A DNA stretch of 32,000 nucleotides from Ralstonia insidiosa (GCF_008801405.1 NZ_VZPV01000001.1:2220115-2252114), one strand, 5' to 3'. Shown: positions 10,301-21,906, numbered from the stretch's first letter. Notes: generated by a model not told the origin, from the letters alone. Translations and numbers: made by a program.

Positions 10301-12001
10301 ATGAAAACGCGTCTGCTTCCCGTTCATCCCTCGGTCGACACCCCACCTGATTTCCCCGACACCGCCGAACTGGCGGCGCTGCGTGCCTGGCATGCTGGTT
10401 TGTCCACCCGCGAAGCCGTTGAGCGGTACCTGGGCGAGCGCCGGGTGCCAGGGCAGTCCTCGCGCAGCGTGCTCAGCCGCATCCGGCTCCAGCTCGCCAC
10501 GTTTGCGCGCCAGCGGCAGCGCGAGGACCTGGCGGTACTGTTTGAGATACCAGCGGCTGAGCGCGCCAAACAGGGCAGGGCGGCTGACCAGGCGATCGAA
10601 CTGCTTCGCACGCTGCCGCTGCCAGCCCCGCTGATCAGCGATGACGTGGAACGATGGCTGGACGCGCGCGCCGTCGCCGCACTGCGGGCCGTCGGCATCG
10701 ACACCCTGGCGGATCTGACCGTCCGCGTGCCGCGCCGGCGTCGTTGGTGGGCGGCCATTCCTGGGCTGGGGCAGGCTGGTGCGCGGCGGATCGAGGCGTT
10801 CTTTGCCGAACACCCGCGATTGACCGAGCGTGCCCGGGCGCTGATCGCTGCACAGGTCCGCGGTGTGGTGGTGCCCTGGGAGCAATTGCGGCTGCCGCAC
10901 GAAGTCGACGGCTCGCAAGGGCAATTCCGTGCGCCGCGCGCGACCTGCGTGCTCACTGCCGACAACGACTACGAGGCCGTCCAGGCCTGGCTTTCCCTAC
11001 ACGAATCCCCCGCAACCCAGCGGGCGTACCGCAAAGAAGCCGAGCGCTTGATGTTGTGGGCGATCGTCGAACGCGGTCGGCCGCTATCGTCACTGACCAC
11101 CGAGGATGCAATCGCCTACCGTGGCTTCCTGCGTCGACCAACGCCGCGAGAACGCTGGGTCGGGCCGGCACGCCCGCGCACATCCGTCGAGTGGCGGCCA
11201 TTCACGGACGGGTTGTCTGCGCGCTCGGTCGCCTACGCGTTGTCCGTGTTGGGGGCCATGTTCCGGTGGCTGATTCAGCAGCGCTACATGCTGGCCAACC
11301 CGTTCGCTGGCGTCAAGGTGCGCGGCGGCGGCAGGACTGCCGCGCTGGATGCCTCGCATGCATTTAGCGACGGCGAATGGGCGCTCGTGCGCACGATTGC
11401 CGACGGTTTGGAGTGGTCCTACGGCTGGGAAGCACCCGCCGCACAGCGGCTGCGTTTTGTATTGGATTTTGGCTATGCAACGGGCCTGCGGGCGAGCGAA
11501 CTCGTTTCTTCCAAGCTCGGTGACGTCGAAACGGATCGGCAGGGCGATCACTGGCTGAACCTGGTGGGGAAGGGGAGCCGCGCCGGCAAGGTCGCGCTGC
11601 CGCCGCTCGCGTGTTCGGCTATCGACCGCTACCTAGTAGAGCGCGGGCTGCCCGTCACGCGGTCGCGCTGGAACCCGAAGACGCCGCTGGTTGGTGGCTT
11701 GGGGTTGGATCCTGGCGGCGGGATTACGGGAACGCGGTTGTGGAGTGTGGTGCGGCGGTTTTTTGAGACCGCCGCCGATGTCATCGAGAACGACCATGCA
11801 GTAATGGCTGAGAAGCTACGCAAGGCCAGCCCACACTGGATGCGGCATACGCATGCCACTCACGCACTCGCGCGCGGTGCGGAACTGACCACCGTGCGGG
11901 ATAACCTGCGGCACGCGTCCATCTCGACGACGTCGATCTATCTGCATGGTGACGACGTGAAGCGGGCTCGGCAGATCAATGCGGCTTTTGCGGCAGAATG
12001 A
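10301..12001 (+). CDS. Tyrosine recombinase / phage-type integrase with a long (about 200 aa) N-terminal extension containing a helix-hairpin-helix-like segment.
   Basis: 566 aa. Catalytic region: ATGLRASEL (Arg I), HWMRHTHATHAL (H-x-x-R), LRHASISTTSIYLH (nucleophile Tyr). The N-terminal IPGLGQAGARRIEAFF is HhH-like. No clear SD at the ATG. Confidence 0.85.
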   Translation: MKTRLLPVHPSVDTPPDFPDTAELAALRAWHAGLSTREAVERYLGERRVPGQSSRSVLSRIRLQLATFARQRQREDLAVLFEIPAAERAKQGRAADQAIELLRTLPLPAPLISDDVERWLDARAVAALRAVGIDTLADLTVRVPRRRRWWAAIPGLGQAGARRIEAFFAEHPRLTERARALIAAQVRGVVVPWEQLRLPHEVDGSQGQFRAPRATCVLTADNDYEAVQAWLSLHESPATQRAYRKEAERLMLWAIVERGRPLSSLTTEDAIAYRGFLRRPTPRERWVGPARPRTSVEWRPFTDGLSARSVAYALSVLGAMFRWLIQQRYMLANPFAGVKVRGGGRTAALDASHAFSDGEWALVRTIADGLEWSYGWEAPAAQRLRFVLDFGYATGLRASELVSSKLGDVETDRQGDHWLNLVGKGSRAGKVALPPLACSAIDRYLVERGLPVTRSRWNPKTPLVGGLGLDPGGGITGTRLWSVVRRFFETAADVIENDHAVMAEKLRKASPHWMRHTHATHALARGAELTTVRDNLRHASISTTSIYLHGDDVKRARQINAAFAAE

Positions 12002-12051
12002 AATCAAGGCCGCAATGGCCCGAAAGCCATTACCAATGGAGTCCGACCGTT

Positions 12052-12441
12052 ATGAAGCCGACCTTCCAGGAGCGCCAAGAACTTAGAAGTCAGTTTGCCA
12101 ACGATGTCGACAGGATGGTGCTTTGCTTGCAAGCGACTGCCGTCACCGCCACAGATGATGAAGTCGTCCAGGCTTGGGCTGAGTACTCCGACGACAACCG
12201 TGCTGGTTGGCTAACTCTTCCAGAAAGTGATGAGACCTTACGCCAGCTTCTGATCAAGTATTTGACAATAACAAGGACACGACTCGTTTGGCGCGTCACC
12301 GGCGTCGAAGCAACGGACGGGACCGGCGATTTCATCGTCCCGCTGCCATCGGAACTGCTTGAACAGTTGGGGTGGCAAATCGGCGAGGAATTGGCGCTTG
12401 AACAAGTTGAACCCGGCACCGTGCGGTTGCGACGCACCTAG
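12052..12441 (+). CDS. Hypothetical protein with a C-terminal AbrB/MazE/SpoVT-like (swapped-hairpin) segment.
   Basis: The track ORF starts at 11998. The ATG at 12052 has GGAG upstream. The C-terminus DFIVPLPSELLEQLGWQIGEELALEQVEPGTVRLRR resembles SpoVT/AbrB antitoxin-like DNA-binding domains. GC is lower than the flanks. Confidence 0.5.
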   Translation: MKPTFQERQELRSQFANDVDRMVLCLQATAVTATDDEVVQAWAEYSDDNRAGWLTLPESDETLRQLLIKYLTITRTRLVWRVTGVEATDGTGDFIVPLPSELLEQLGWQIGEELALEQVEPGTVRLRRT

Positions 12442-12675
12442 GCAGTGTCTCCGCGGCGCGGGGAAGGTCAAAAGTGGTTACGGACAGTCTTAACAGAATC
12501 GTGTCCCTAAAGGAACTCAACGATATTGGGGCACGCAACGCAGGTACCAAATGGCACAAGCGGTCGAATCTGACATTACGACGTAGGGTTCCGTTGGAAA
12601 GTGGCGAATTTCGACCCATCTTTCCGTTGGAGCGGTGTGTTTGCGTCACATCTCGGCCCTGCCTTTTTACTACGA

Positions 12676-12703
12676 AACGCGTGTAATTTGCATTATGTTA
12701 AAT
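12676..12703 (+). repeat. dif-like site, prophage attL (AACGCGTGTAA-TTTGCA-TTATGTTAAAT).
   Basis: The last 11 nt are identical to the XerD arm of E. coli dif (TTATGTTAAAT). The XerC-arm position partly matches GGTGCGCATAA (6/11). The 17 nt at 12687-12703 are repeated exactly at 21888-21904. Confidence 0.7.
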
Positions 12704-12726
12704 CACGACGCAAATTGTGGGCGCGT

Positions 12727-12972
12727 CTACAACAGGCGCTGCGTGCAATCCAGGCACGCGCGGAACCGGCAACCGCGTGACCGGCAACACATCAGCAAGT
12801 CCAGCACCTCCCTCTTCGAAACGCCTGCATCGAGCAGGCGTTTTTTCTTCTTCTCGATCTTCCTGTAGTAGCGCCTACGCGGCGCGTCTTGGATGCCACG
12901 GCGCAGATGCCGGATGTGCCAATAAAGGTTCCGGATCTCGCGCGCCAGCGCCCGCTTTTCATCGTCAGACAC
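12727..12972 (-). CDS. Hypothetical 81-aa basic protein (uncertain).
   Basis: GTG start with AGGGG upstream and high GC3 (about 80% by my count). The helical basic sequence MSDDEKRALAREIRNLYWHIRHLRR... However, it runs antisense through the plus-strand terminator and the phage-form repressor tail. Confidence 0.35.
   Translation of the reverse strand: MSDDEKRALAREIRNLYWHIRHLRRGIQDAPRRRYYRKIEKKKKRLLDAGVSKREVLDLLMCCRSRGCRFRACLDCTQRLL
12820..12850 (+). terminator. Rho-independent terminator on the plus strand.
   Basis: AACGCCTGC-atcga-GCAGGCGTT followed by TTTTTTCTTCTTC. It lies about 40 nt after the TGA (12778-12780) that would end the repressor ORF in the circularised phage. Confidence 0.6.
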
Positions 12973-13020
12973 TTCGCCCCTGCGTGTTATCTTTACGCAA
13001 CACTAGCAATGGGGTGCGCG

Positions 13021-13518
13021 ATGCGCAACATCAACCTGTGGACGATTTTGATCTGCCTTGCCGGCGGCCTATACGTCTACGAGTACTACCCGCGAAACGG
13101 CGCCAAGATCGAAATTGCCATCCCGGCAGTCACCCATCAGGAACCGGCCGTAGCACCTGCACCTGAGCCGCCAAAGCCCGCACCAGTAGTCAACACACAG
13201 CCCACATACACGCCACCGCCACCAGCACCGGCGCAGCCACAGCAATCGGGCAGCATCGATCCGTGGACGGCCGAGCTAGCGCGCCAAGCTGACGCCCGCA
13301 TCGCACGCCAACGCGGCGAGTGGGCAGCGCAAGACCGGCAAGCCGCCCAGGTACAGGCAGCGCAAGCAAACGCCGCTGCAGCAACCTGCATCGGTCTACG
13401 GCAAGAGAAAGAGGGAATTTTGGCGAGCCAACGCCACGGTGGGACGGCTCAATGGATGAACTATCTGAACGACCGGTTCCACACCGTCTCAGACGCGCTG
13501 TATCGCAACCGCTGCTGA
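13021..13518 (+). CDS. Hypothetical membrane-anchored protein with a proline-rich linker (prophage accessory).
   Basis: Trimmed from the 12889 track start to the ATG at 13021: MRNINLWTILICLAGGLYVYEYY (N-terminal TM), then PAPEPPKPAPV...PPPPAPAQPQQ and a Gln/Ala-rich C-domain. Weak RBS. Confidence 0.5.
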   Translation: MRNINLWTILICLAGGLYVYEYYPRNGAKIEIAIPAVTHQEPAVAPAPEPPKPAPVVNTQPTYTPPPPAPAQPQQSGSIDPWTAELARQADARIARQRGEWAAQDRQAAQVQAAQANAAAATCIGLRQEKEGILASQRHGGTAQWMNYLNDRFHTVSDALYRNRC

Positions 13519-13771
13519 AAATCCCAGCTGGAGATCCACACGATGGTTTTTGAAGGCCCGCGCCAGGACTAGCTTTGCTGGCGATTTTTCCTGCAGGAGA
13601 AAAGCGGGCTTGCAAGAGAGGGGGTGTTTGGATGTGGGCAGCCTTGTATGTACCTACCTGGTCGTACCCGCTGCTCGGTCCCGCCAGCCGCACTGGCCGT
13701 GCGACAACCGCCAGAGATCCCGCCCACGCCCCACCTCTACCGCCTGGTCATGGGCGCGGACACTCCCGACG

Positions 13772-13975
13772 CTAGTCCATATCGATCACGTCATCGATCG
13801 AGTGCAACGAGATCACCAAGCGCAGGCGCGACACCCCACGCTCCTTCATCGCACGCTCTATCAACTCCTCAAGCGTCACCGACCAAGCATCAGAGCCCCA
13901 CGAGGTGTCAGCCAAAATCGAAAAGCGGTCAGGCACGCCACCAGGAACCTCGTTGATTCGCGTCAGATCCAGCAT
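13772..13975 (-). CDS. Hypothetical 67-aa acidic protein, third gene of the prophage accessory operon.
   Basis: The ATG lies 1 nt after the stop of the upstream ORF, with GAGG upstream. I recognise no family. Confidence 0.5.
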   Translation of the reverse strand: MLDLTRINEVPGGVPDRFSILADTSWGSDAWSVTLEELIERAMKERGVSRLRLVISLHSIDDVIDMD

Positions 13976-13976
13976 C

Positions 13977-14537
13977 TCAGCCTCGCAAGACTTTTTTCGT
14001 TACGCGCTTACGCGTAACAGGTTTGACAGCAACTTCACCACTGCCGACCTTGCCATAGACCTGCAGCAGCTCGATCTTGTAGTTATCAATCGCCGCACGA
14101 GCTGAGACCAGCTCACGCGCCAACTGCTCAATCTCCCGCTCAGCATCAACGTTCTTATCGAGCTGAACAGACAACTCGTAACGCACGCGAAACAACTCGT
14201 CGCAAACCTCAGCCAAATGATCGTTCTCACGGTCGCGCCCGTTCAAATAGCCTTCCAGCTCATCAATACGCTTACGAGCCTCCACCAGCTCAGCACGCAA
14301 CCATTCCACCTCGAGGCGGCACTCATCGTAGGCATCAACGTCGGAAAGCATTTCCGTTACAGTCATGCACTTAGTAACGGATTTAGCCTCAACCGGCTGC
14401 TGAGCCTTGCGACGAGCTCGAAACGCTGCCTGCCGCTCTGCATTGCTCATCGCGTGCGCCTTGCGCGGACGACCACGGCCACGCTTCTGCTCTACACCAG
14501 CCAGCTCGCCAGTCACGTTATCCGTTACGTCACGCAT
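13977..14537 (-). CDS. Hypothetical 186-aa protein with an AT-hook-like GRGRPRK motif and a long coiled-coil region.
   Basis: The track ORF extends to 14624. I trimmed it to the ATG at 14537 (MRDVTDNVTGELAG...), 1 nt after the upstream ORF stop. KRGRGRPRKAH is followed by heptad-like LRAELVEARKRIDELEGYL...EIEQLARELVSARAAIDNYKIELL. Confidence 0.6.
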   Translation of the reverse strand: MRDVTDNVTGELAGVEQKRGRGRPRKAHAMSNAERQAAFRARRKAQQPVEAKSVTKCMTVTEMLSDVDAYDECRLEVEWLRAELVEARKRIDELEGYLNGRDRENDHLAEVCDELFRVRYELSVQLDKNVDAEREIEQLARELVSARAAIDNYKIELLQVYGKVGSGEVAVKPVTRKRVTKKVLRG

Positions 14538-14538
14538 A

Positions 14539-14733
14539 TCAACCCCACACCTTGACTGCAACGACGCAGAGCACCAGAAGGCTCGCAACACCGCCCCACA
14601 GCGCAACCTTAAGGCGCAGCGCACGACGACGACAGTCCTCCAGGAACATCTCCCGAATCTCCGGGATCGCCATCAGCTCAGACTCCGTATAAACCGGCCC
14701 GGAAACAACGGAATTATTCGTTACGTCACGCAT
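14539..14733 (-). CDS. Hypothetical 64-aa protein with a C-terminal transmembrane helix, first gene of the accessory operon.
   Basis: GGGAGG RBS 5 nt upstream of the ATG. MRDVTNNSVV... shares its first residues and a 22-bp DNA stretch with the next ORF. C-terminal LWGGVASLLVLCVVAVKVWG. Confidence 0.6.
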   Translation of the reverse strand: MRDVTNNSVVSGPVYTESELMAIPEIREMFLEDCRRRALRLKVALWGGVASLLVLCVVAVKVWG

Positions 14734-14758
14734 ATTCGCCTCCCGATCTGATGAATCT

Positions 14759-14787
14759 ATTTTACGTTACTCGTAACGGATATTCAA
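14759..14787 (-). promoter_or_regulatory. Near-consensus sigma70 promoter (TTGAAT-N17-TAAAAT) with a CGTTAC-GA-GTAACG palindrome filling the spacer.
   Basis: The minus strand reads TTGAAT atccgttacgagtaacg TAAAAT, about 25 nt upstream of the 64-aa ORF ATG, in the AT-richer gap between that ORF and the zot stop. Confidence 0.55.
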
Positions 14788-14817
14788 TTACTGTTACACT
14801 TTTCCCCGTAACGAAAA

Positions 14818-16161
14818 TTACCCATGTGACCAATGCTGCGTTCCGTCGTACGCAGCACTGCGCCGGATATGCCGCGGCGGCGCGGCATCGTCCGGGATGT
14901 TCGTAATGCTCGGCGGCAGATCCACGACGCCACGACCCATCACCTGGTCATCCTGGGCGGGCCAACCCTCCGGGCCAAAGTCCTGCACACGCTCATCGCG
15001 TGCGCTGCGCAAATCAGCGCCAGACATCGCACGCACACCCTCGACCTGCTTCTCCGGCACCTTGCCGTAAATATCGATGGGCCACATCGTCACGACGATG
15101 CGCCGCTCTCCCTTCGCCAGGATGACGTGCTGGCCGTACTGCGACTCCTGCACCTTCCAACCCAGCTCCTCCACGGTCGCGGCCGACAGTCGCTCACGCA
15201 CGCGTGATGAGTCGTCATACCAAGCGACCAGCACGTCGGCCTGGCCACGAGCACGTGCCCACCCTTCCAGGCGCGGCCGGTACTTCTTCGCCAGACCAGC
15301 AATGAAATCGTCGTCCTCCGGCGCTGGCTTCGGATCCGCAGCTTTCGCGGCCGGAGCTGCGGGAACCTTCTCAGCACCGGCCACCGGCGGCGTGCTCGAG
15401 CTCGTGACACTCGTTGTGACCACGTGCTTTTCCTCCGGCTTGGACCCAACCAAACCACCGCCCTTGAACAGGTACACGAGATAGCCGATAGCACCGAACG
15501 CAACCAAGGCGAAGAGCGGGATCCACACCCGGAAGGCCTTGGTCTTGAAAATATTCGCAGCACTGTCTTCCAGCGTATCGGTGTTCGTCGTGCCGTCGGT
15601 ATGGCTCTTGTAGAGACCGAAGTACTTTTCCTCGTACTCCCCGGACCCGTCCGACACCTTCTCGAAGCGATCCCCCTTCTGCCCCTTCACCTTCTTGTAG
15701 ACGGTCCACTTGAACTCGTTCGGCTTGCCGACCACGTCCTTCTTCTGGAACACATATTTCCGGTCGATACGACGCTTCCAGATGTTGTGCACGTCGTTCA
15801 GATCCTGCCCCATCAAGATAATGTCGATGCCGTCGTGACCGTGCTGCGTCACGAACTTCGTCATCGGCTTGTCCAGCGGCTTGAAGCTCGACGGCCAGTA
15901 ATCCTGCGCCTCGTCCAACACGTAGAGCGCATCCTTCACGACGTGCTCATAGAGACGCGGCATATCCTCGTCACCGATGCACTTCACCAGCTCGCGCACG
16001 CGCTCTACATCAACGCCGGTGAGCTCGGCAGCCATCTCCATGTTGAAGCCATCGACATTGGTGACAACATGCCGCCCCTTGATGATCGCTTCGAGGATCC
16101 ACTTCACAACGGCCGTGTACGATTTACCCGCACGCGGCAGACCTTCAAAGAAATTGATCAT
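14818..16161 (-). CDS. Zot-like / pI-family phage assembly ATPase.
   Basis: Trimmed from 16296 to the ATG at 16161, 4 nt after the pVI-like stop. MINFFEGLPRAGKSY is the P-loop Walker A typical of the Zot/pI N-terminus. There is a DEAQ Walker B-like motif and a central TM segment (VWIPLFALVAFGAIGYLVYLF). Confidence 0.9.
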   Translation of the reverse strand: MINFFEGLPRAGKSYTAVVKWILEAIIKGRHVVTNVDGFNMEMAAELTGVDVERVRELVKCIGDEDMPRLYEHVVKDALYVLDEAQDYWPSSFKPLDKPMTKFVTQHGHDGIDIILMGQDLNDVHNIWKRRIDRKYVFQKKDVVGKPNEFKWTVYKKVKGQKGDRFEKVSDGSGEYEEKYFGLYKSHTDGTTNTDTLEDSAANIFKTKAFRVWIPLFALVAFGAIGYLVYLFKGGGLVGSKPEEKHVVTTSVTSSSTPPVAGAEKVPAAPAAKAADPKPAPEDDDFIAGLAKKYRPRLEGWARARGQADVLVAWYDDSSRVRERLSAATVEELGWKVQESQYGQHVILAKGERRIVVTMWPIDIYGKVPEKQVEGVRAMSGADLRSARDERVQDFGPEGWPAQDDQVMGRGVVDLPPSITNIPDDAAPPRHIRRSAAYDGTQHWSHG

Positions 16162-16165
16162 GGTG

Positions 16166-16498
16166 TCACCACTGGCCGAGCGTAAAGAGCTTGCGCACGA
16201 ACAGCCGGAACGCCACAGCACCCCCGAGCATCGCCAAGCCCTGCGGGATGTTGAAAACCGAAACGAAGTACAGGATGTCGCTGCCCATCTGACCAATCAG
16301 CGACTGCAACGAGTACTGCGTAAGGAACTGAGGCGCCGGAGCCGCAGCGATCAACGAGGCAACTGCCGACAGGAACAGATCGAAGGCGGCAATCGCAAGG
16401 TCGATGGTGATGTCCCACATCGCCTGGAACACCGCGACAAAGACTTTCCCGAACCACGCCAGGACAGAAGACAGGGCATTGATGATGGCATCAAACAT
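16166..16498 (-). CDS. pVI-like minor coat / membrane protein.
   Basis: 110 aa, strongly hydrophobic, positioned between the pIII-like and pI genes as in Ff and RSS-type phages. Confidence 0.6.
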   Translation of the reverse strand: MFDAIINALSSVLAWFGKVFVAVFQAMWDITIDLAIAAFDLFLSAVASLIAAAPAPQFLTQYSLQSLIGQMGSDILYFVSVFNIPQGLAMLGGAVAFRLFVRKLFTLGQW

Positions 16499-16510: not shown

Positions 16511-18082
16511 TCACAGAAAGGCAATCGCAAACGCGGCAAAGGCAGCGGCCGCGAGCACCGCATACCCGGCAATCTGATACGCCAATGAAGCTGACGAGCT
16601 GCAGAAGATCGGCCCCAACGCAATCGACGGTGTCCAATCCGTCTGAGGCACGACCCACTGCGGACAAGTACCAGACGCATTCACGGTAAAAAAGCCCTGC
16701 ACACCTGCCCCAATGGCAGAAGCCTTCACGGTGTTAGCAAAAGCGTTGAGCACATCTCCAAACGTCTTCGTCTTCTTGTCGTACAGCTTGATGTCCGGAC
16801 TCACGAGCGTAGCCGTCGTCGGTTGCGGCTTGTCCTGCTGATTCGCCGGGTTGCCACCAGTTGCGGGCGGCGCTTGATCGGTCGTCGTCGTCGTCGTGGT
16901 GGTCGTGCTGCCGTCCGGATTCGTGACCGTTGTCGACGTCGATGTTGTTATCGTGGTCTGCCCCTCAACAGGGTTAGTCCGATCGTTGGTGCCCGTCACC
17001 GTGGTGGTCTTGGTCGTGGTGTTCGTCGTCGTCGTCTTGCTGCCATCGGCGTTGACCTTAGTAGACGAATCCGTCGAGGGCGCCGTCGTCACAGTTGCGG
17101 ACGGGCACGACGTGCTATTCACCGCGCAACCGTTGTTCGTCCAGCTAGAACCGCCAGTAGAAAACGACACGCCGAAGCCAGTGCGCGAATCGCTATACAG
17201 GCCATAACACGGGTCAGAGGTAGACCCATCGGTGAGAGCCAGCGTCGGCCCACAGTTCATATCGTTGTAGATCGACGGCCACGAGTCAGGATGCGCCTTG
17301 ATGGCACCCTGAATCTGCGCATCAGTAGCAGCCTGCTTCGGCGCAGACGGATCAGGAGAACACGCAGACCCACTATTCACATAACCAGTGGCGCAGGCGC
17401 CCGTTTGGTTCGCCCTGCTATACGGATAAAAATCCAAATCGCTCTTTAGAATTTTTGCAGTGCCGGTGTACGTACCATCACCATTGGCAACCACACCACC
17501 GTACTGATACCAAGTACTCGGCATGCTCGCCCTGCACGCAGCATCCGGACTATCGCCATACCCGCTGCCGCCACCAGCGCTGCCCCAATTGCAAAACCAC
17601 TGATGCCCGTTAAACCCTACGTCACCCGCGCTGGCAGACAACGCAGGCGCAACTACCTGCCCGTTGCTATCAAGCGAAACATCACCACCAAGGCGATTCA
17701 TCAACGTCACCAAAGCAACGCCGCCGATGATGCCCCCACGAATGGCCGTCATGCCAACCGAAGCCATCACATCACCCGCCACCGCAGCAGTGCCCACGGC
17801 AGGAATGGCGACAGCAGCAACGCCCACAGCCGCAACACCAACGGTGATCGGTATCAGCACGTTCATCACGTTGTTGGACGGCGGTTGCGGCACACCATTA
17901 CCGCTCTGTCTCGCTGACACATCGACGCCCACACTATTGCCCTGAATGCACATCTGCCCGGGCATCGTGCACCCACCGTAACCCACTGCCGCGCGCGCCG
18001 AACCAGCCATCAATACGCCAGCGATCAGAAACACGCACGCCAAGTCGAGCAAAAACTCCGCAAACCTCAGACGCTTGTCCAT
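16511..18082 (-). CDS. pIII-like minor coat / host-adsorption protein.
   Basis: 523 aa with a signal peptide (...MAGSARA), Cys-containing N-terminal domains, Thr/Gly-rich linkers (TTTTNTTTKTTTVTGT; STTTTTTTTTDQ) and a C-terminal membrane anchor (YAVLAAAAFAAFAIAFL). It sits after the coat gene. Confidence 0.7.
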   Translation of the reverse strand: MDKRLRFAEFLLDLACVFLIAGVLMAGSARAAVGYGGCTMPGQMCIQGNSVGVDVSARQSGNGVPQPPSNNVMNVLIPITVGVAAVGVAAVAIPAVGTAAVAGDVMASVGMTAIRGGIIGGVALVTLMNRLGGDVSLDSNGQVVAPALSASAGDVGFNGHQWFCNWGSAGGGSGYGDSPDAACRASMPSTWYQYGGVVANGDGTYTGTAKILKSDLDFYPYSRANQTGACATGYVNSGSACSPDPSAPKQAATDAQIQGAIKAHPDSWPSIYNDMNCGPTLALTDGSTSDPCYGLYSDSRTGFGVSFSTGGSSWTNNGCAVNSTSCPSATVTTAPSTDSSTKVNADGSKTTTTNTTTKTTTVTGTNDRTNPVEGQTTITTSTSTTVTNPDGSTTTTTTTTTDQAPPATGGNPANQQDKPQPTTATLVSPDIKLYDKKTKTFGDVLNAFANTVKASAIGAGVQGFFTVNASGTCPQWVVPQTDWTPSIALGPIFCSSSASLAYQIAGYAVLAAAAFAAFAIAFL

Positions 18083-18463: not shown

Positions 18464-18712
18464 CTAGTCATTGAACATGGCGACCAAACGACCGATTGCG
18501 TAGCCCACCAAGTAGGACGCCGCCACCAGCCCAAATGCCGTCACAAACACTGTCGCCAAATCTGCCTGCGACGGAACCTGCATCCACGTGTAGAACGTGG
18601 TCGCGTTCTGGAACTCCCCAGGCGTCAGCATCAGGTACCCCTGACACGCCTGCGGCGCATCGTTGGTCACCGTCAACGCGCCGCCGTCGGCGACCAGAAC
18701 GCACTGAGCCAT
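18464..18712 (-). CDS. Small phage membrane protein (82 aa).
   Basis: C-terminal TM (VFVTAFGLVAASYLVGYAIGRLV). Tightly packed between the ssDNA-binding and coat genes; its start overlaps the upstream stop. Confidence 0.5.
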   Translation of the reverse strand: MAQCVLVADGGALTVTNDAPQACQGYLMLTPGEFQNATTFYTWMQVPSQADLATVFVTAFGLVAASYLVGYAIGRLVAMFND

Positions 18713-19038
18713 TACGCTTCCACCACGTCGAGCACGTGATCGACCGGCACGATGGTTTCCACCTCGCCTGTGTCCTTGTTCTTAAACTGATACGGCTTGC
18801 GCTGATAACCGCCCAGGCTGCACAACACCGTCACTTCGTCGCCCTTCTCACCGAGCTTCTGTTTGGCGCGCACCTCAACCACCTGCGGACGGCTGTAAGC
18901 GTCCGGCGCGGGCGTGATGATTCGCGTGTACCGCGTGCCATCGAACGAACGCATCTGCTCAATGCGGCCACGAACCATCACCTGCATGGGCTTAATGGAA
19001 GCGGGCTTCTGTGCACCCGGTGTGTTTTCCTGAGACAT
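18712..19038 (-). CDS. Probable ssDNA-binding protein (pV-like), called by position and size.
   Basis: 108 aa, immediately downstream of the Rep gene as in inoviruses. Basic, beta-rich-looking sequence. No motif-level proof. Confidence 0.5.
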   Translation of the reverse strand: MSQENTPGAQKPASIKPMQVMVRGRIEQMRSFDGTRYTRIITPAPDAYSRPQVVEVRAKQKLGEKGDEVTVLCSLGGYQRKPYQFKNKDTGEVETIVPVDHVLDVVEA

Positions 19039-19047
19039 GACTGCTCC

Positions 19048-20238
19048 TTACGCGGCAAGCCGCAACGTTTCCCGGCTCACTTGCAATTCCTCGCGGTTGC
19101 GCGCCGGGAGATGGCACAGCCGTGGGTCCGTCCGTACCGGACTGAAATCGTGGGGAAGTACGCCGCCGTTGGCGACGACCACCACATCGGTGCCGCGCCA
19201 GGACACGCCGGCATCCTCAAGCTGCTTGCGGTTCCGGTAGAACACCGTCCTAGCGAAATGCTCACGCGTTACCTCGTCACCCAGCGTGCACAGCGAAGAC
19301 CAGAAGCCATACAGCCGAGTACCAGTCGAATCGCCATACACACCCTTGAGGCGGTGAAGCACCGCCCTGCTCTCTCTCACCGTCGTCATCGCTTGCTTCC
19401 CCTCGCGCAGGAGCTTCTCGATCTCGGTGTCAAAGACGCCCTCCAGATACGCGTCCGTCACCTCATCCACTCGCGGATGCTTCCCAAAGTCGTACTGGAG
19501 CTTGTCGCTATGCACTTCCACCTCGGCGCGCAGGCGGTTCTCCGCCAGGCGCAGGAGCGCTGCAACCTTGCGCTCGGCCAGCACACGGCTACGTTCCTCG
19601 TCGTGCCCGTGACGATGCTTGAACACCTGCGAGAAAAAGCCCCGCAGGCGGCCACGGTCATGCACCTGGAACTCGGTGCCCTTGTGATAGAACTTGACCG
19701 TAGTGGTCTTGCCCGCGAAGTACACCGCCATGGAGTACTTCGCTGCGCCCTTCTGCCGGCGCGGAAAGCTGATGAGCTGCAGGCCGTCGAAGAACTCCTT
19801 GCACGCAGCCTTCGAGAGCCGATAGACCGATGCCACGTCAACGCGATGCACGGTCCACCAGTCGGCCACCGGCAAATCGGTCTGCAACAGATCCTCGACC
19901 AGAGCGACGAAGTCGCGGCACGCCTGCAAGAAATTCGCGGGCCCACCGTAGACGTTGTGGCCGTGCTTGATCTTGTGCACCGACGCTTCGATGAGGATGT
20001 ACGGGTCACACGGCACCAGCTCGGGACGGCCGTTCTTATTGACTACCCACTCCTCGTTCTTCGGGATCACCGAGATGCGTGAATCCCAGGAGCCGAGCAG
20101 CTCGCCCGTGAACAGCTCATAGAGGATTTCGCCGCTGGCGCAGTCCAAGCCAGAACGCAACAGGCACTGCCGTTTGATGCGCTCAACCACGGCGTTGCCA
20201 AGGTACGGAGAGCGCAACCGGACGGTGTCGTAGGCCAT
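19048..20238 (-). CDS. Rolling-circle replication initiation protein (pII / phage CRI family).
   Basis: 396 aa. Its position at the head of the structural module, and regions such as YILIEASVHKIKHGHNVYGG, are consistent with filamentous-phage Rep proteins. The start overlaps the upstream stop (ATGA). Confidence 0.75.
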   Translation of the reverse strand: MAYDTVRLRSPYLGNAVVERIKRQCLLRSGLDCASGEILYELFTGELLGSWDSRISVIPKNEEWVVNKNGRPELVPCDPYILIEASVHKIKHGHNVYGGPANFLQACRDFVALVEDLLQTDLPVADWWTVHRVDVASVYRLSKAACKEFFDGLQLISFPRRQKGAAKYSMAVYFAGKTTTVKFYHKGTEFQVHDRGRLRGFFSQVFKHRHGHDEERSRVLAERKVAALLRLAENRLRAEVEVHSDKLQYDFGKHPRVDEVTDAYLEGVFDTEIEKLLREGKQAMTTVRESRAVLHRLKGVYGDSTGTRLYGFWSSLCTLGDEVTREHFARTVFYRNRKQLEDAGVSWRGTDVVVVANGGVLPHDFSPVRTDPRLCHLPARNREELQVSRETLRLAA

Positions 20239-20630
20239 CAGAACCCCTCGCCAGAATCCGAGGAATTCCCGAAATCGGGACTGTCAGGCGGTGCTACCAC
20301 GCCCGCCTGACAAAAAGCAGCCTCGCTGCGCGAGGCCAAAAACTCGGCTTCCGCAGCGTCAGAAAGTGCTGCATTCACGTCATCAAGGGACAGAGAACCA
20401 CGACGAGCGGCCACACGGCCGCCCGATGCGTTGCGATAGGCTTGCTCCGACGCACGCGCACGGCGCGCGGCCGCTTTCTGCTCGAGCAACTCACGCAGCC
20501 AGACTGGCATCGTCTGACCTGCAGCCGCTGACGCAACCGGAATGACACGCCCAGCGCGGCGGGCCGCGCCCTCCGGGGCGGCGCCGGCGCGCAGGGCGGC
20601 AGAACTCGACTGAGATTGGCCGCCCTTCAT
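20238..20630 (-). CDS. Hypothetical phage protein (130 aa, Ala/Arg-rich).
   Basis: Translationally coupled at both ends (ATGA overlaps) within the phage early operon. Confidence 0.45.
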   Translation of the reverse strand: MKGGQSQSSSAALRAGAAPEGAARRAGRVIPVASAAAGQTMPVWLRELLEQKAAARRARASEQAYRNASGGRVAARRGSLSLDDVNAALSDAAEAEFLASRSEAAFCQAGVVAPPDSPDFGNSSDSGEGF

Positions 20631-21435: not shown

Positions 21436-21484
21436 ATCTCAGGCGAGATTCATCTCGGGTGAGATTAAATATCTCGGGTGAGAT
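21436..21484. promoter_or_regulatory. Three tandem palindromic operators ATCTC-N4-GAGAT in the divergent control region of the prophage.
   Basis: ATCTCAGGCGAGAT (21436-21449), ATCTCGGGTGAGAT (21452-21465) and ATCTCGGGTGAGAT (21471-21484). Centre-to-centre spacing is 16 and 19 bp. They lie between the leftward early operon and the rightward repressor gene. A 12-bp palindrome CCGGTTAACCGG sits nearby at 21408-21419. Confidence 0.65.
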
Positions 21485-21510
21485 GTTGTCAAGGCAGATG
21501 GAGGCAACAG

Positions 21511-21906
21511 ATGAAAAGCACGAAGTACCTGGACGCCGTCAAGCAGGCACACCAGCTCAAGAACGACACGGCCCTAGCAGACCTGCTGGGCGTAGGTCAG
21601 AACACCGTTAGCCAATGGCGTAACGGAAAACGATTCATGGATAACGAAATGTGCCTGAAGCTCGCACAGGCCCTGGACATGCAGGACCCCATGCCGATCA
21701 TCATGGCCGCGGATATGGACCGAGCTGAGCGCGCTGGTCAGCGGTCGCTATGGGAAGTTTTTTCACCGAGGATGGCGCATAGCGGCCTGGTCGCCCTCCT
21801 CGTCGCGCTGCTGGCCAGTGTCACAAATTTTGCGACACCCTCACCCGCCGAAGCCGCGCCGTTGAGCCATTCGTCGGCCCCTAACACTTTGCATTATGTT
21901 AAATAA
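21511..21906 (+). CDS. Phage repressor-like HTH (XRE/Cro-CI type) protein with a C-terminal hydrophobic segment. Its 3' end lies in the dif-like attR.
   Basis: ATG at 21511 with GGAGG 6 nt upstream (the track start is 21478). The HTH is DTALADLLGVGQNTVSQWRNGKRFM. The final codons L-H-Y-V-K-stop are encoded by the dif-like repeat, and the TAA straddles the repeat/chromosome junction. Confidence 0.8.
   Translation: MKSTKYLDAVKQAHQLKNDTALADLLGVGQNTVSQWRNGKRFMDNEMCLKLAQALDMQDPMPIIMAADMDRAERAGQRSLWEVFSPRMAHSGLVALLVALLASVTNFATPSPAEAAPLSHSSAPNTLHYVK
21877..21904 (+). repeat. dif-like site, prophage attR (GCCCCTAACAC-TTTGCA-TTATGTTAAAT).
   Basis: The central region and XerD arm are identical to attL. 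The XerC-arm position is phage-derived and unlike dif consensus. Confidence 0.7.

Follow-up and report, generated by a model that had tools for sequence, protein, structure and literature searches.

A GTAAC palindrome array spanning the promoter and coding sequence of a putative DNA-binding gene in a Ralstonia insidiosa filamentous prophage

Why should a filamentous prophage crowd one short motif into about a kilobase of its genome, and let it run from promoter DNA straight into the coding sequence that follows? The question is raised by a 32,000-nucleotide stretch of Ralstonia insidiosa DNA (GCF_008801405.1, NZ_VZPV01000001.1:2220115-2252114; hereafter the window), in which a filamentous (inovirus) prophage, its genes on the minus strand, carries a module rich in CGTTAC/GTAACG (13772-14820) after its Zot/pI gene. 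Filamentous phages of Ralstonia (RSS1, RSS0, RSM, p12J) can make a major plant pathogen more virulent or less so, and are being engineered as delivery vehicles (PMC4471427, PMC11323561). An earlier note, made from the sequence alone, had read the locus as an autoregulated operon of three genes, perhaps controlled by its AT-hook protein and matching no described system. The comparative analysis given here suggests that the module is most likely a self-referential autoregulatory unit of a widespread, unstudied gene family. Its conserved core appears to be a promoter and one gene rather than a three-gene operon, and the product of that gene, a predicted DNA-binding protein of 186 residues (13977..14537, minus strand), is likely to bind GTAAC palindromes that lie in the promoter and the coding part of its own gene.

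The abundance of the motif withstood the formal count against shuffled controls that the earlier note had proposed. CGTTAC/GTAACG occurs nine times in 13772-14820, where dinucleotide-preserving shuffles of the same segment (5000 for the hexamer, 1000 for the any-hexamer test) give 0.45 +/- 0.66 with a maximum of 5; none of the 5000 reaches nine, and any hexamer at all attains nine copies in 3 of 1000. For the pentamer GTTAC/GTAAC, 11 occurrences in 13990-14820 compare with 1.09 +/- 0.99, close to the previous rough expectation of about one. They lie at 13999, 14014, 14178, 14356, 14374, 14524, 14720, 14766, 14773, 14793 and 14808, so that the earlier total stands while its last position (14807) was one base out, and nine of them extend to the hexamer, as had been stated. 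Hexamer density is 10.8 per kb in the module and 0.23 per kb elsewhere in the window.

How these copies are laid out is more telling than how many there are. A promoter scan of 13400-15000 recovered exactly one sigma-70-like promoter, the near-consensus TTGAAT-17-TAAAAT noticed before (minus strand, 14787..14759), with its -35 hexamer at 14782..14787, kept in the locus alignment, and its -10 hexamer at 14759..14764. Two palindromes and one half-site fall within 14714-14813 around it, an array that overlaps the module's own promoter. The putative core operator, CGTTAC-N2-GTAACG (14765..14778, minus strand), does lie in the promoter spacer, where it occupies 14 of the 17 bases rather than filling them exactly as once claimed; it abuts the -10, which provides the A-rich outer flank of the half-site, and its N1-N2 spacing recurs in ~30 loci. 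Just 5' of the -35 is a putative upstream operator, CGTTAC-N10-GTAAC (14793..14813, minus strand), which starts ~5 nt past the zot stop codon and has an N9-N10 version in nearly all homologous loci. The half-site belongs to a 22-bp direct repeat, confirmed by repeat search and locus alignment with its two copies 95% identical: copy 2 (14714..14735, minus strand) holds the start codon and MRDVT codons of a 64-residue open reading frame (ORF) together with GTAACG at 14719-14724, and copy 1 (14518..14539, minus strand) holds those of the 186-residue ORF with GTAACG at 14523-14528.

Further sites lie inside the gene, where both inverted repeats reported earlier (13999-14018 and 14354-14380) are present. 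A putative in-gene operator, CCGTTAC-N13-GTAACGG (14354..14380, minus strand), is translated as S-V-T ... T-V-T, and a putative end-of-gene operator (13998..14018, minus strand), GTTACGCG-N4-CGCGTAAC followed by an A-run, encodes PVTRKRVTKK; many relatives have N9-N10 palindromes with a GTAACGAAAAA flank at this end of the gene. Between them stands a lone putative half-site, CGTTAC on the coding strand (14178..14183, minus strand), without a partner here, at a distance where the L007-L010 group of loci has a full N5 palindrome (+353/+364).

The same layout recurs well beyond this prophage. Our comparison set comprised 24 close loci and ~20 more distant ones, all oriented on the gene (a single-protein contig scan, its peptide patterns over-specific, gave 2 loci only). 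The hexamer cluster sits at equal relative positions in all 24 close loci, and also occurs in the more distant relatives, while the homologous proteins are merely 45-63% identical and differ by many coiled-coil indels. Across ~40 related loci we find TTGAAT-17-TAAAAT with CGTTAC-N2-GTAACG in the spacer, a further palindrome ahead of the -35, a half-site in codons 4-5 and more palindromes in the gene, translated as Ser-Val-Thr-Val-Thr, and the promoter aligns nearly base for base as aattttCGTTACg-N8-tGTAACa-gtaaTTGAAT-atcCGTTACgaGTAACG-TAAAAT-(~25 nt with GGAGG)-ATGcgtgacGTAACGgataac. Among site pairs within 30 bp, 87 are convergent, 10 divergent and 9 direct. In-gene sites nearly always form convergent pairs, CGTTAC-Nx-GTAACG, with x fixed by position: 1 or 13 near +155, 5 near +355, +400 or +500, and 9-10 where the gene ends. 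In extended form, the half-site reads aaaWtYCGTTAC (WTTTYCGTTAC), that is GTAACG(G/A)AAA, with the A/T tract facing outward. The palindrome near +155 (N1 or N13) is shared by most long relatives and by the four short relatives (L067, L070, L072 and L080) that have an SVTVT-type linker and for which the in-gene site was read.

Both the presence and the absence of the array follow the gene. Hexamers inside the module account for 11 of 11 in RS603, 7 of 8 in p12J and 15 of 20 in RSS30, whereas Rs551, RSM1 and RSM3, which have no such gene, contain no CGTTAC/GTAACG in 7.9-9.0 kb; in Aeromonas inoviruses, small plasmids and Paraburkholderia plasmids the motif is again found together with a homologue. 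In the protein alignment the coiled coil is hypervariable and full of indels, and the conserved islands SVT, SVTVT and VVT are the translated sites. Val-Thr is spelled with GTA or GTT in 6 of 7 cases in the 186- and 64-residue ORFs, against 1 of 26 in the remaining genes of the window, phage and host alike, which agrees with the codon claim of the earlier note. Islands in a hypervariable region, combined with this codon bias, therefore indicate selection on the DNA. The earlier suggestion of such selection is further borne out by a cluster kept in all homologous loci, absent where the gene is absent and co-varying with a protein residue (below), and the comparison shows a motif apparently under selection at the DNA level.

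What, then, is the protein? Its start is an internal ATG of a 215-residue mechanical ORF, and the MRDVT start is found in all homologues. Its description here draws on PHROG matches, a structural model and its homologues. The AlphaFold2 (AF2) model, built from a 50-sequence alignment (mean predicted local distance difference test score 80.8), has a disordered arm at 1-31 bearing the AT-hook-like RGRGRPRK, a short basic helix at 32-46 (NAERQAAFRARRK), a 20-residue non-helical linker with SVT/TVT, a single 94-residue helix at 67-160 (coiled coil) and a basic tail. It matches PHROG 9651 (E 1.5e-45) and 23279 (E 1.3e-44), neither of which has an assigned function. The named-phage ORFs RSS1 ORF10 (E 1e-33), RS603 ORF11 (E 2e-37) and p12J ORF8 (E 1e-45) all land on the 186-residue ORF in tblastn searches of the window, the number ORF10 for phiRSS1/RSS0 being that of GenBank, and the family was found by tblastn in 39 Ralstonia inovirus records. 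Database relatives come from Ralstonia, Cupriavidus and a few Paraburkholderia and Caballeronia plasmids, none with a precomputed Pfam domain. A basic leucine zipper (bZIP) had been considered, the half-sites being PAR/CRE-like and the protein combining a basic helix with a coiled coil; it was discarded, since the helix at 32-46 and the coiled coil at 67-160 are non-contiguous, and the modelled absence of a coiled coil from short relatives also counts against it. Ralstonia has a GTWWAC methylation motif; a link to it was likewise dropped, GTTAC being a 5-mer with a single central T/A pair and no fit to GTWWAC.

The gene family itself was already on record, which qualifies the earlier impression of no described system. 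In a Yamada-group review, RSS ORF10 and ORF11 appear as 'two unknown ORFs' placed beside the assembly module (PMC4471427), and the Rs551 paper remarks that RS603 has the family's ORF as an extra in common with the RSS phages, while Rs551 is without it (PMC5608472). For the phiRSS1 ORF10 / RS603 ORF11 / p12J ORF8 family the literature searched describes no motif, operator, DNA binding or function. RSS1 ORF11 (143 residues; L087, 5723-6154) is unrelated to the window protein, and the review label 'RSS1-ORF11-like' for the RS603 gene contradicts GenBank, which points to ORF10. We also observed an 18-nt inverted repeat in the 186-residue ORF (14196-14213 / 14399-14416, 89% complementary), pairing the basic-helix codons (RARRKAQ) with LAEVCDEL codons 185 nt downstream and adding to the stable predicted fold.

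The link between this protein and the motif is drawn most closely by residue 32, the first of the basic helix. Paired half-sites at loci of Asn32 proteins (31 distinct) comprise 314 GTWAC against 51 GTSAC, and those of Gly32 or Gln32 proteins 22 against 38, an odds ratio of 10.6 from counts that are not phylogenetically independent. The switch to the GTGAC type is seen in at least five separate lineages: L020; L077/L078; L067/L080, relatives from Aeromonas inoviruses; L072, a relative on a mobilisable plasmid, with L091; and the Gln32 loci L081/L090. In L020 (Cupriavidus-type, Gly32) the core operator is replaced by CGTCAC-gc-GTGAC, and L070, an Asn32 member of the short plasmid subfamily, uses GTTAC/GTAAC exclusively. 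In-gene sites change synonymously with the promoter sites, GTT ACG GTA ACG becoming GTC ACA GTG ACA in the Gly32 relatives L067, L072 and L080, so that despite the switch the palindrome still encodes S/N-V-T-V-T. This co-variation makes the protein most likely the autorepressor that binds its own operators. As the cluster is conserved with the gene, absent without it and co-varies with residue 32, the 186-residue protein is the best candidate binder; this much of the proposed autoregulated AT-hook module, along with its promoter operator, has held up, and the three-gene operon has not.

The operon fails on conservation rather than on description. Three minus-strand ORFs separated by 1-nt gaps are indeed present, and the flanking two fit their earlier portrayal as membrane-like and acidic: the 64-residue ORF (14539..14733) has a C-terminal hydrophobic segment and the 67-residue ORF (13772..13975) a pI of 4.5. 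The sole homologue of the former is in L004 (Ralstonia sp. LMG 32965), and the latter occurs in one other place only, a metagenomic viral contig (L006/L028) at 98.5% identity. Searches of all three against Pfam, NCBIfam and PADLOC, toxin-antitoxin and defence families included and with neighbouring ORFs added for NCBIfam and PADLOC, gave no meaningful match (the 186-residue ORF yielding only coiled-coil noise), and the 67-residue ORF has no family match in PHROG either. Most relatives have the promoter head and then the DNA-binding gene directly, with nothing between; other phages carry a different small ORF at the same spot, or none. L011 (3700-4000) places an unrelated 59-residue ORF between head and gene. 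In PE226 (L082, 4056-4318) the promoter and first 12 codons (MRDVTDNVTGEL) are fused to an unrelated 60-residue membrane-type ORF8 that overlaps the Rep start; there the DNA-binding part is gone, downstream sites are lacking and half of the core operator is decaying to GTAAT. Because most relatives have the head directly before the gene, the 22-bp repeat can be read as the scar or handle of an insertion behind a head comprising promoter, ribosome-binding site, ATG and MRDVT, which would be why both ORFs begin MRDVT. Repeat copy 2 thus appears to be the original promoter-proximal head, the 64-residue ORF a lineage-specific insertion between head and DNA-binding gene, and the 67-residue ORF sporadic cargo outside the conserved module, while the site behind the head seems to behave as a hot spot for cargo insertion. 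The half-site inside the head may be the reason for its retention in both copies.

The N-terminal part of the protein reaches much further than the Ralstonia phages. Its first 47 residues are homologous to short proteins of 85-100 residues (hhalign 98.5%, E 1.6e-15), whose profile gathers 1,328 clusters at 50% identity. Among 109 diverse members, 7 match RepB-RCR_reg (best E 1.7e-07), 3 match ribbon-helix-helix (RHH) families and 4 carry a fused H-NS C-terminal domain; others fall below the PF10723 threshold at 13-15 bits, and several have long N-terminal extensions. Sampled contexts include two plasmids, one of 3.4 kb with Rep+Mob and one with MobC/relaxase, and an Aeromonas inovirus prophage in which the gene once more follows Zot directly. 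Another is a conjugative Paraburkholderia plasmid of 295 kb, whose palindromes in the promoter, inside the gene and at its end are the same. Judged by these homologies, the N-terminal domain appears to be modular and far more widely spread than the Ralstonia phages. A model of a short relative has an extended segment at 45-51 and helices at 52-67 and 76-94, where a single long helix takes the place of these two in the window protein.

From these comparisons we infer the binding, repression, oligomeric state and biological role of the 186-residue protein as follows. It would be a sequence-specific DNA-binding protein whose N-terminal 47-residue module, an RGRP minor-groove arm plus the short basic helix, would recognise the ~10-bp half-site GTAACG(G/A)AAA, with Asn32 reading the central A of GTAAC. 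Half-sites would be used as convergent pairs with position-specific spacers of 1, 2, 5, 9-10 or 13 bp; the long coiled coil would make the protein at least a dimer, its flexible arms reaching across the varied spacings. With one pair in the spacer, another just before the -35 and a half-site in codons 4-5, the bound protein should shut the promoter off, which would amount to autorepression. The pairs in the gene and at its end, 150-550 bp downstream, may be auxiliary operators, serving for looping or as roadblocks to transcription from the zot operon and the module's own promoter toward the intergenic/replication region of the circular genome. The role would be dosage control of the double-stranded replicative form, through expression of downstream replication functions or through episome maintenance, analogous to the CopG/RepB-type regulators of rolling-circle plasmids, and the 64- and 67-residue ORFs would be passengers inserted behind the promoter head and behind the gene.

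Taken whole, this account of a one-gene autorepressor module with its own operator array and a part in replicative-form dosage seems to us on balance probable, and several observations weigh against it. A spacer range of 1-13 bp is unusual for a simple dimer, and the module region folds unusually well as a single strand. Beyond a borderline AT_hook (PF02178; 16.2 bits for the whole protein and 18.1 for an N-terminal fragment, cut-off 17.4) there is no Pfam DNA-binding family for the protein, sequence searches of the PDB with long- and short-family profiles gave coiled-coil noise or nothing, and Foldseek of the short-relative model against the PDB gave nothing with E<1. Besides the shared ancestry behind the residue-32 counts, Gly32 loci frequently have hybrid sites, which would be consistent with relaxed specificity, and GTAAC is the site of Pro32 relatives as well, so that residue and base do not correspond one to one; Pro is the commonest residue at the equivalent position in the wider family (27 of 87 parsed). 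Rep is next to the module neither in this prophage nor in RSS-type phages, and on the small plasmid L070 the gene sits downstream of rep, so a copy-control role is not general.

Who or what else could account for the array? That the excess is a by-product of Val-Thr coding and the 22-bp duplication, with no function in the DNA, might be argued from the 5 of 11 pentamers that encode Val-Thr in the 186-residue ORF, the one more in the 64-residue ORF and the two copies owed to a single duplication; yet four copies lie in non-coding promoter DNA, the codon bias and the SVT/VVT islands are left over, in-gene sites switch synonymously in step with the promoter, and with the duplicate counted once there are still 8 hexamers against 0.45 expected, far beyond the shuffles. 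The comparative data already contradict this reading, which we find hardly credible. A different binder, from the host or from the phage itself (for instance the XRE-type repressor that the prophage separately encodes at 21478-21906), would leave the 186-residue protein unrelated to the motif. Such a binder would have to follow a motif that travels with the gene across phages that differ in repressor and in replication module (RSS-type phages, the RSM-type hybrid RS603, p12J and the present one) and into Aeromonas inoviruses, small plasmids and Paraburkholderia plasmids, that is missing from Ralstonia inoviruses without the gene, that co-varies with residue 32, and that RSS1 possesses with no ORF13 repressor (PMC4471427); we regard it as highly improbable. 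The motifs might instead act as hairpin stems in viral single-stranded DNA or in mRNA, as a packaging signal, minus-strand origin or RNA structure. The 831-nt module is indeed more stable than shuffles as single-stranded DNA (z = -5.7, 20 shuffles), RNA parameters give z = -4.5 where five other segments of the prophage range from -0.06 to -2.1, permuting the eleven 5-mers takes away about half of the excess, and the end-of-gene site makes an 8-bp stem with a 4-nt loop. Such extra stability is, however, the expected by-product of many mutually complementary copies: spacers of 1-2 nt are too short for loops, most spacers are not self-complementary and leave stems of only 5-6 bp, relatives have direct-repeat forms (GTTACtGTTAC, GTGACtGTGAC), a large conjugative plasmid, which is a double-stranded replicon, shows the same layout, and co-variation with a protein residue would go unexplained. 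We rejected hairpins on the spacer lengths and direct-repeat arrangements, and consider them very unlikely.

The main functional rival keeps the same binder and gives it another purpose: the ~1-kb array would be a centromere-like or anchoring complex for inheritance of the replicative form or episome, a single-protein partition system in the manner of pSK1 Par or KfrA. A long coiled coil joined to a DNA-binding head in the AF2 model, sites spread over gene and flank beyond what a promoter operator needs, and a stand-alone, putatively autoregulated gene without a constant downstream target would all suit it, as would relatives on small mobilisable plasmids and the 295-kb conjugative plasmid. 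Gene-bearing RSS-type genomes have been deposited as free plasmids (pJTPS1, 6.6 kb; CP099581.1). Rs551, RSM1 and RSM3 encode a resolvase-type recombinase and are without the gene, and RS603 has the gene; the recombinase has been shown to mediate Rs551 integration, and RS603 has never been found integrated (PMC5608472). On the other side, no partner NTPase (ParA/ParM/TubZ) lies next to the module in the window or its relatives, where Zot and small ORFs adjoin it, a replicative form present in many copies should need no partition, short relatives without the coiled coil keep the same site layout, and integrative phages, such as RSS0 and this dif-flanked prophage, also have the gene. We think partition or anchoring unlikely as the purpose of the array, and prefer the autorepressor.

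On the minus strand of the prophage, in gene order, lie a replication initiator (19048-20238), a single-stranded DNA-binding protein (18712-19038), coat proteins, a pIII-like protein (16511-18082), a pVI-like protein (16166-16498) and Zot/pI (14818-16296). Similarity of the prophage to known phage DNA is almost all to Ralstonia inoviruses and is strongest over 13600-14838, the module itself, with p12J, RS603, RSS30, PE226 and many YO prophages as partners, which marks it as a mosaic module common to otherwise unlike phages. It lies directly downstream of zot with its own promoter (14759-14787), as in p12J, RS603, RSS1 and PE226, and in p12J, RS603 and PE226 the next gene 3' of it is that for Rep, placing it directly upstream of the rolling-circle replication gene. 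After the module comes a conserved non-coding element (13600-13775, minus strand), shared by p12J, RS603, RSS1, RSS30, L004, L006, L011, L013 and L050. Its core, GGCGGGACCGAGCAGCGGGTA, is invariant, and just before it comes a short hairpin (CGCAC-ggcca-GTGCG) with one compensatory pair in RSS-type phages; as a whole, the element is no more stable than shuffles (z = +1.85), and an Rfam search of 12000-15500 gave nothing relevant. Since phages whose Rep proteins differ have it in common, its function could depend on the host, as that of a minus-strand origin would.

At its ends the prophage (~9.2 kb) is bracketed by two direct dif-like copies (12687-12703 and 21888-21904), an identical 17-mer, TTTGCATTATGTTAAAT, that includes the XerD arm TTATGTTAAAT; the right copy falls inside the XRE-type repressor ORF, at its 3' end, an arrangement also described for ORF13 of phiRSS0. 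The pair suggests XerCD/dif integration, by which the true left end would be at ~12.7 kb rather than at the integrase. That 566-residue tyrosine integrase (DUF3701 + Phage_integrase) lies outside the left copy, overlapped by a 147-residue ORF with a weak SpoVT/AbrB (MazE_antitoxin) match; together they take up 10301-12441 and are neighboured by host nikR-like and TonB-receptor genes. The region may be a separate integrative element or an inovirus neighbour; a homologous integrase is present in the 34-kb predicted prophage YO188_1. Over 1.8 kb, the Rep and single-stranded DNA-binding protein region (18720-20535) has 85% identity with records that bear the names 'Lentisphaerae phage WC36-1' and 'Phage WC36-1-filamentous'. 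The Lentisphaerae host label of these records looks doubtful, the phage being otherwise Ralstonia-type; Ralstonia is a common contaminant.

What is gained concerns one of the most widely shared accessory genes of Ralstonia filamentous phages, previously without a proposed function. The gene now has a proposed operator sequence, a candidate recognition residue, a strong, putatively autoregulated promoter and cis sites, and is tied to a large and still uncharacterised family of plasmid and inovirus proteins. Promoter and putative operator together make an expression cassette with its regulation built in, the position behind the promoter and ahead of the gene offers phage engineering a natural insertion site, and the co-variation of residue 32 with base 3 gives a direct test handle on a possibly new DNA-recognition module. 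If the role is control of copy number or episome stability, the gene bears on why some such phages persist as plasmids. A bolder version, which we put forward tentatively and think rather doubtful, would make the 47-residue arm-plus-helix an unrecognised DNA-binding domain family of >1,300 clusters, in which residue 32 sets the third base of GTNAC and every member bears its own operator in the codons of its SVTVT linker; in Ralstonia inoviruses, fusion to a coiled coil and multiplication of sites over ~1 kb would give a self-assembling nucleoprotein domain that sets episome copy number or stability, and may sway whether virulence-modifying phages persist as plasmid or prophage.

Among known systems, the nearest are the phage genes themselves. 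With phiRSS1 ORF10, RS603 ORF11 and p12J ORF8 the window copy shares 52-63% identity over the N-terminal two thirds, the place after zot, the promoter and the GTAAC array; it differs in its 186-residue length with a p12J-like short C-terminus and in the added 64- and 67-residue ORFs. Like RepB-RCR_reg (PF10723) and CopG-type RHH repressors, the module looks to be a small autoregulated plasmid-type regulator with promoter-overlapping operators on a rolling-circle replicon, and in distant relatives only, the GRP...AERQ..YRAR arm/helix and the V-T-V strand-like segment fall inside the matched part of the PF10723 profile. The window protein itself has no PF10723 match at E<=1 (gathering score 21 bits; none at E<=10 for its N-terminal 70 residues) and no RHH match, one 94-residue helix in place of two, and operators in the gene, so that working like a CopG/RepB-type plasmid autorepressor is a lead and not a membership. 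The pSK1 Par and KfrA (IncP) proteins are single-protein plasmid stability factors with a DNA-binding head, a coiled coil, repeats at their own promoter and no partner ATPase, all of which the module resembles; their heads are of winged-helix or helix-turn-helix type and their repeats lie upstream rather than in the gene, whereas the window family is without a PDB sequence match. The RGRGRPRK arm and the A/T-rich tract on the outer side of the half-sites recall AT-hooks (PF02178) and the GRPR minor-groove arm of Hin recombinase, with the differences of a borderline Pfam score and of a defined GTAAC core rather than AT-rich DNA in general. Auxiliary intragenic operators acting by DNA looping are familiar from lac O2 inside lacZ and gal OI inside galE, and here too a promoter operator is accompanied by a second one 150-200 bp downstream in coding sequence; the difference is that this operator lies in the putative repressor's own gene, is read as a conserved SVTVT and, in long forms, is one of several. 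In kind, the module is thus a plasmid/phage autorepressor with operator arrays rather than a new category.

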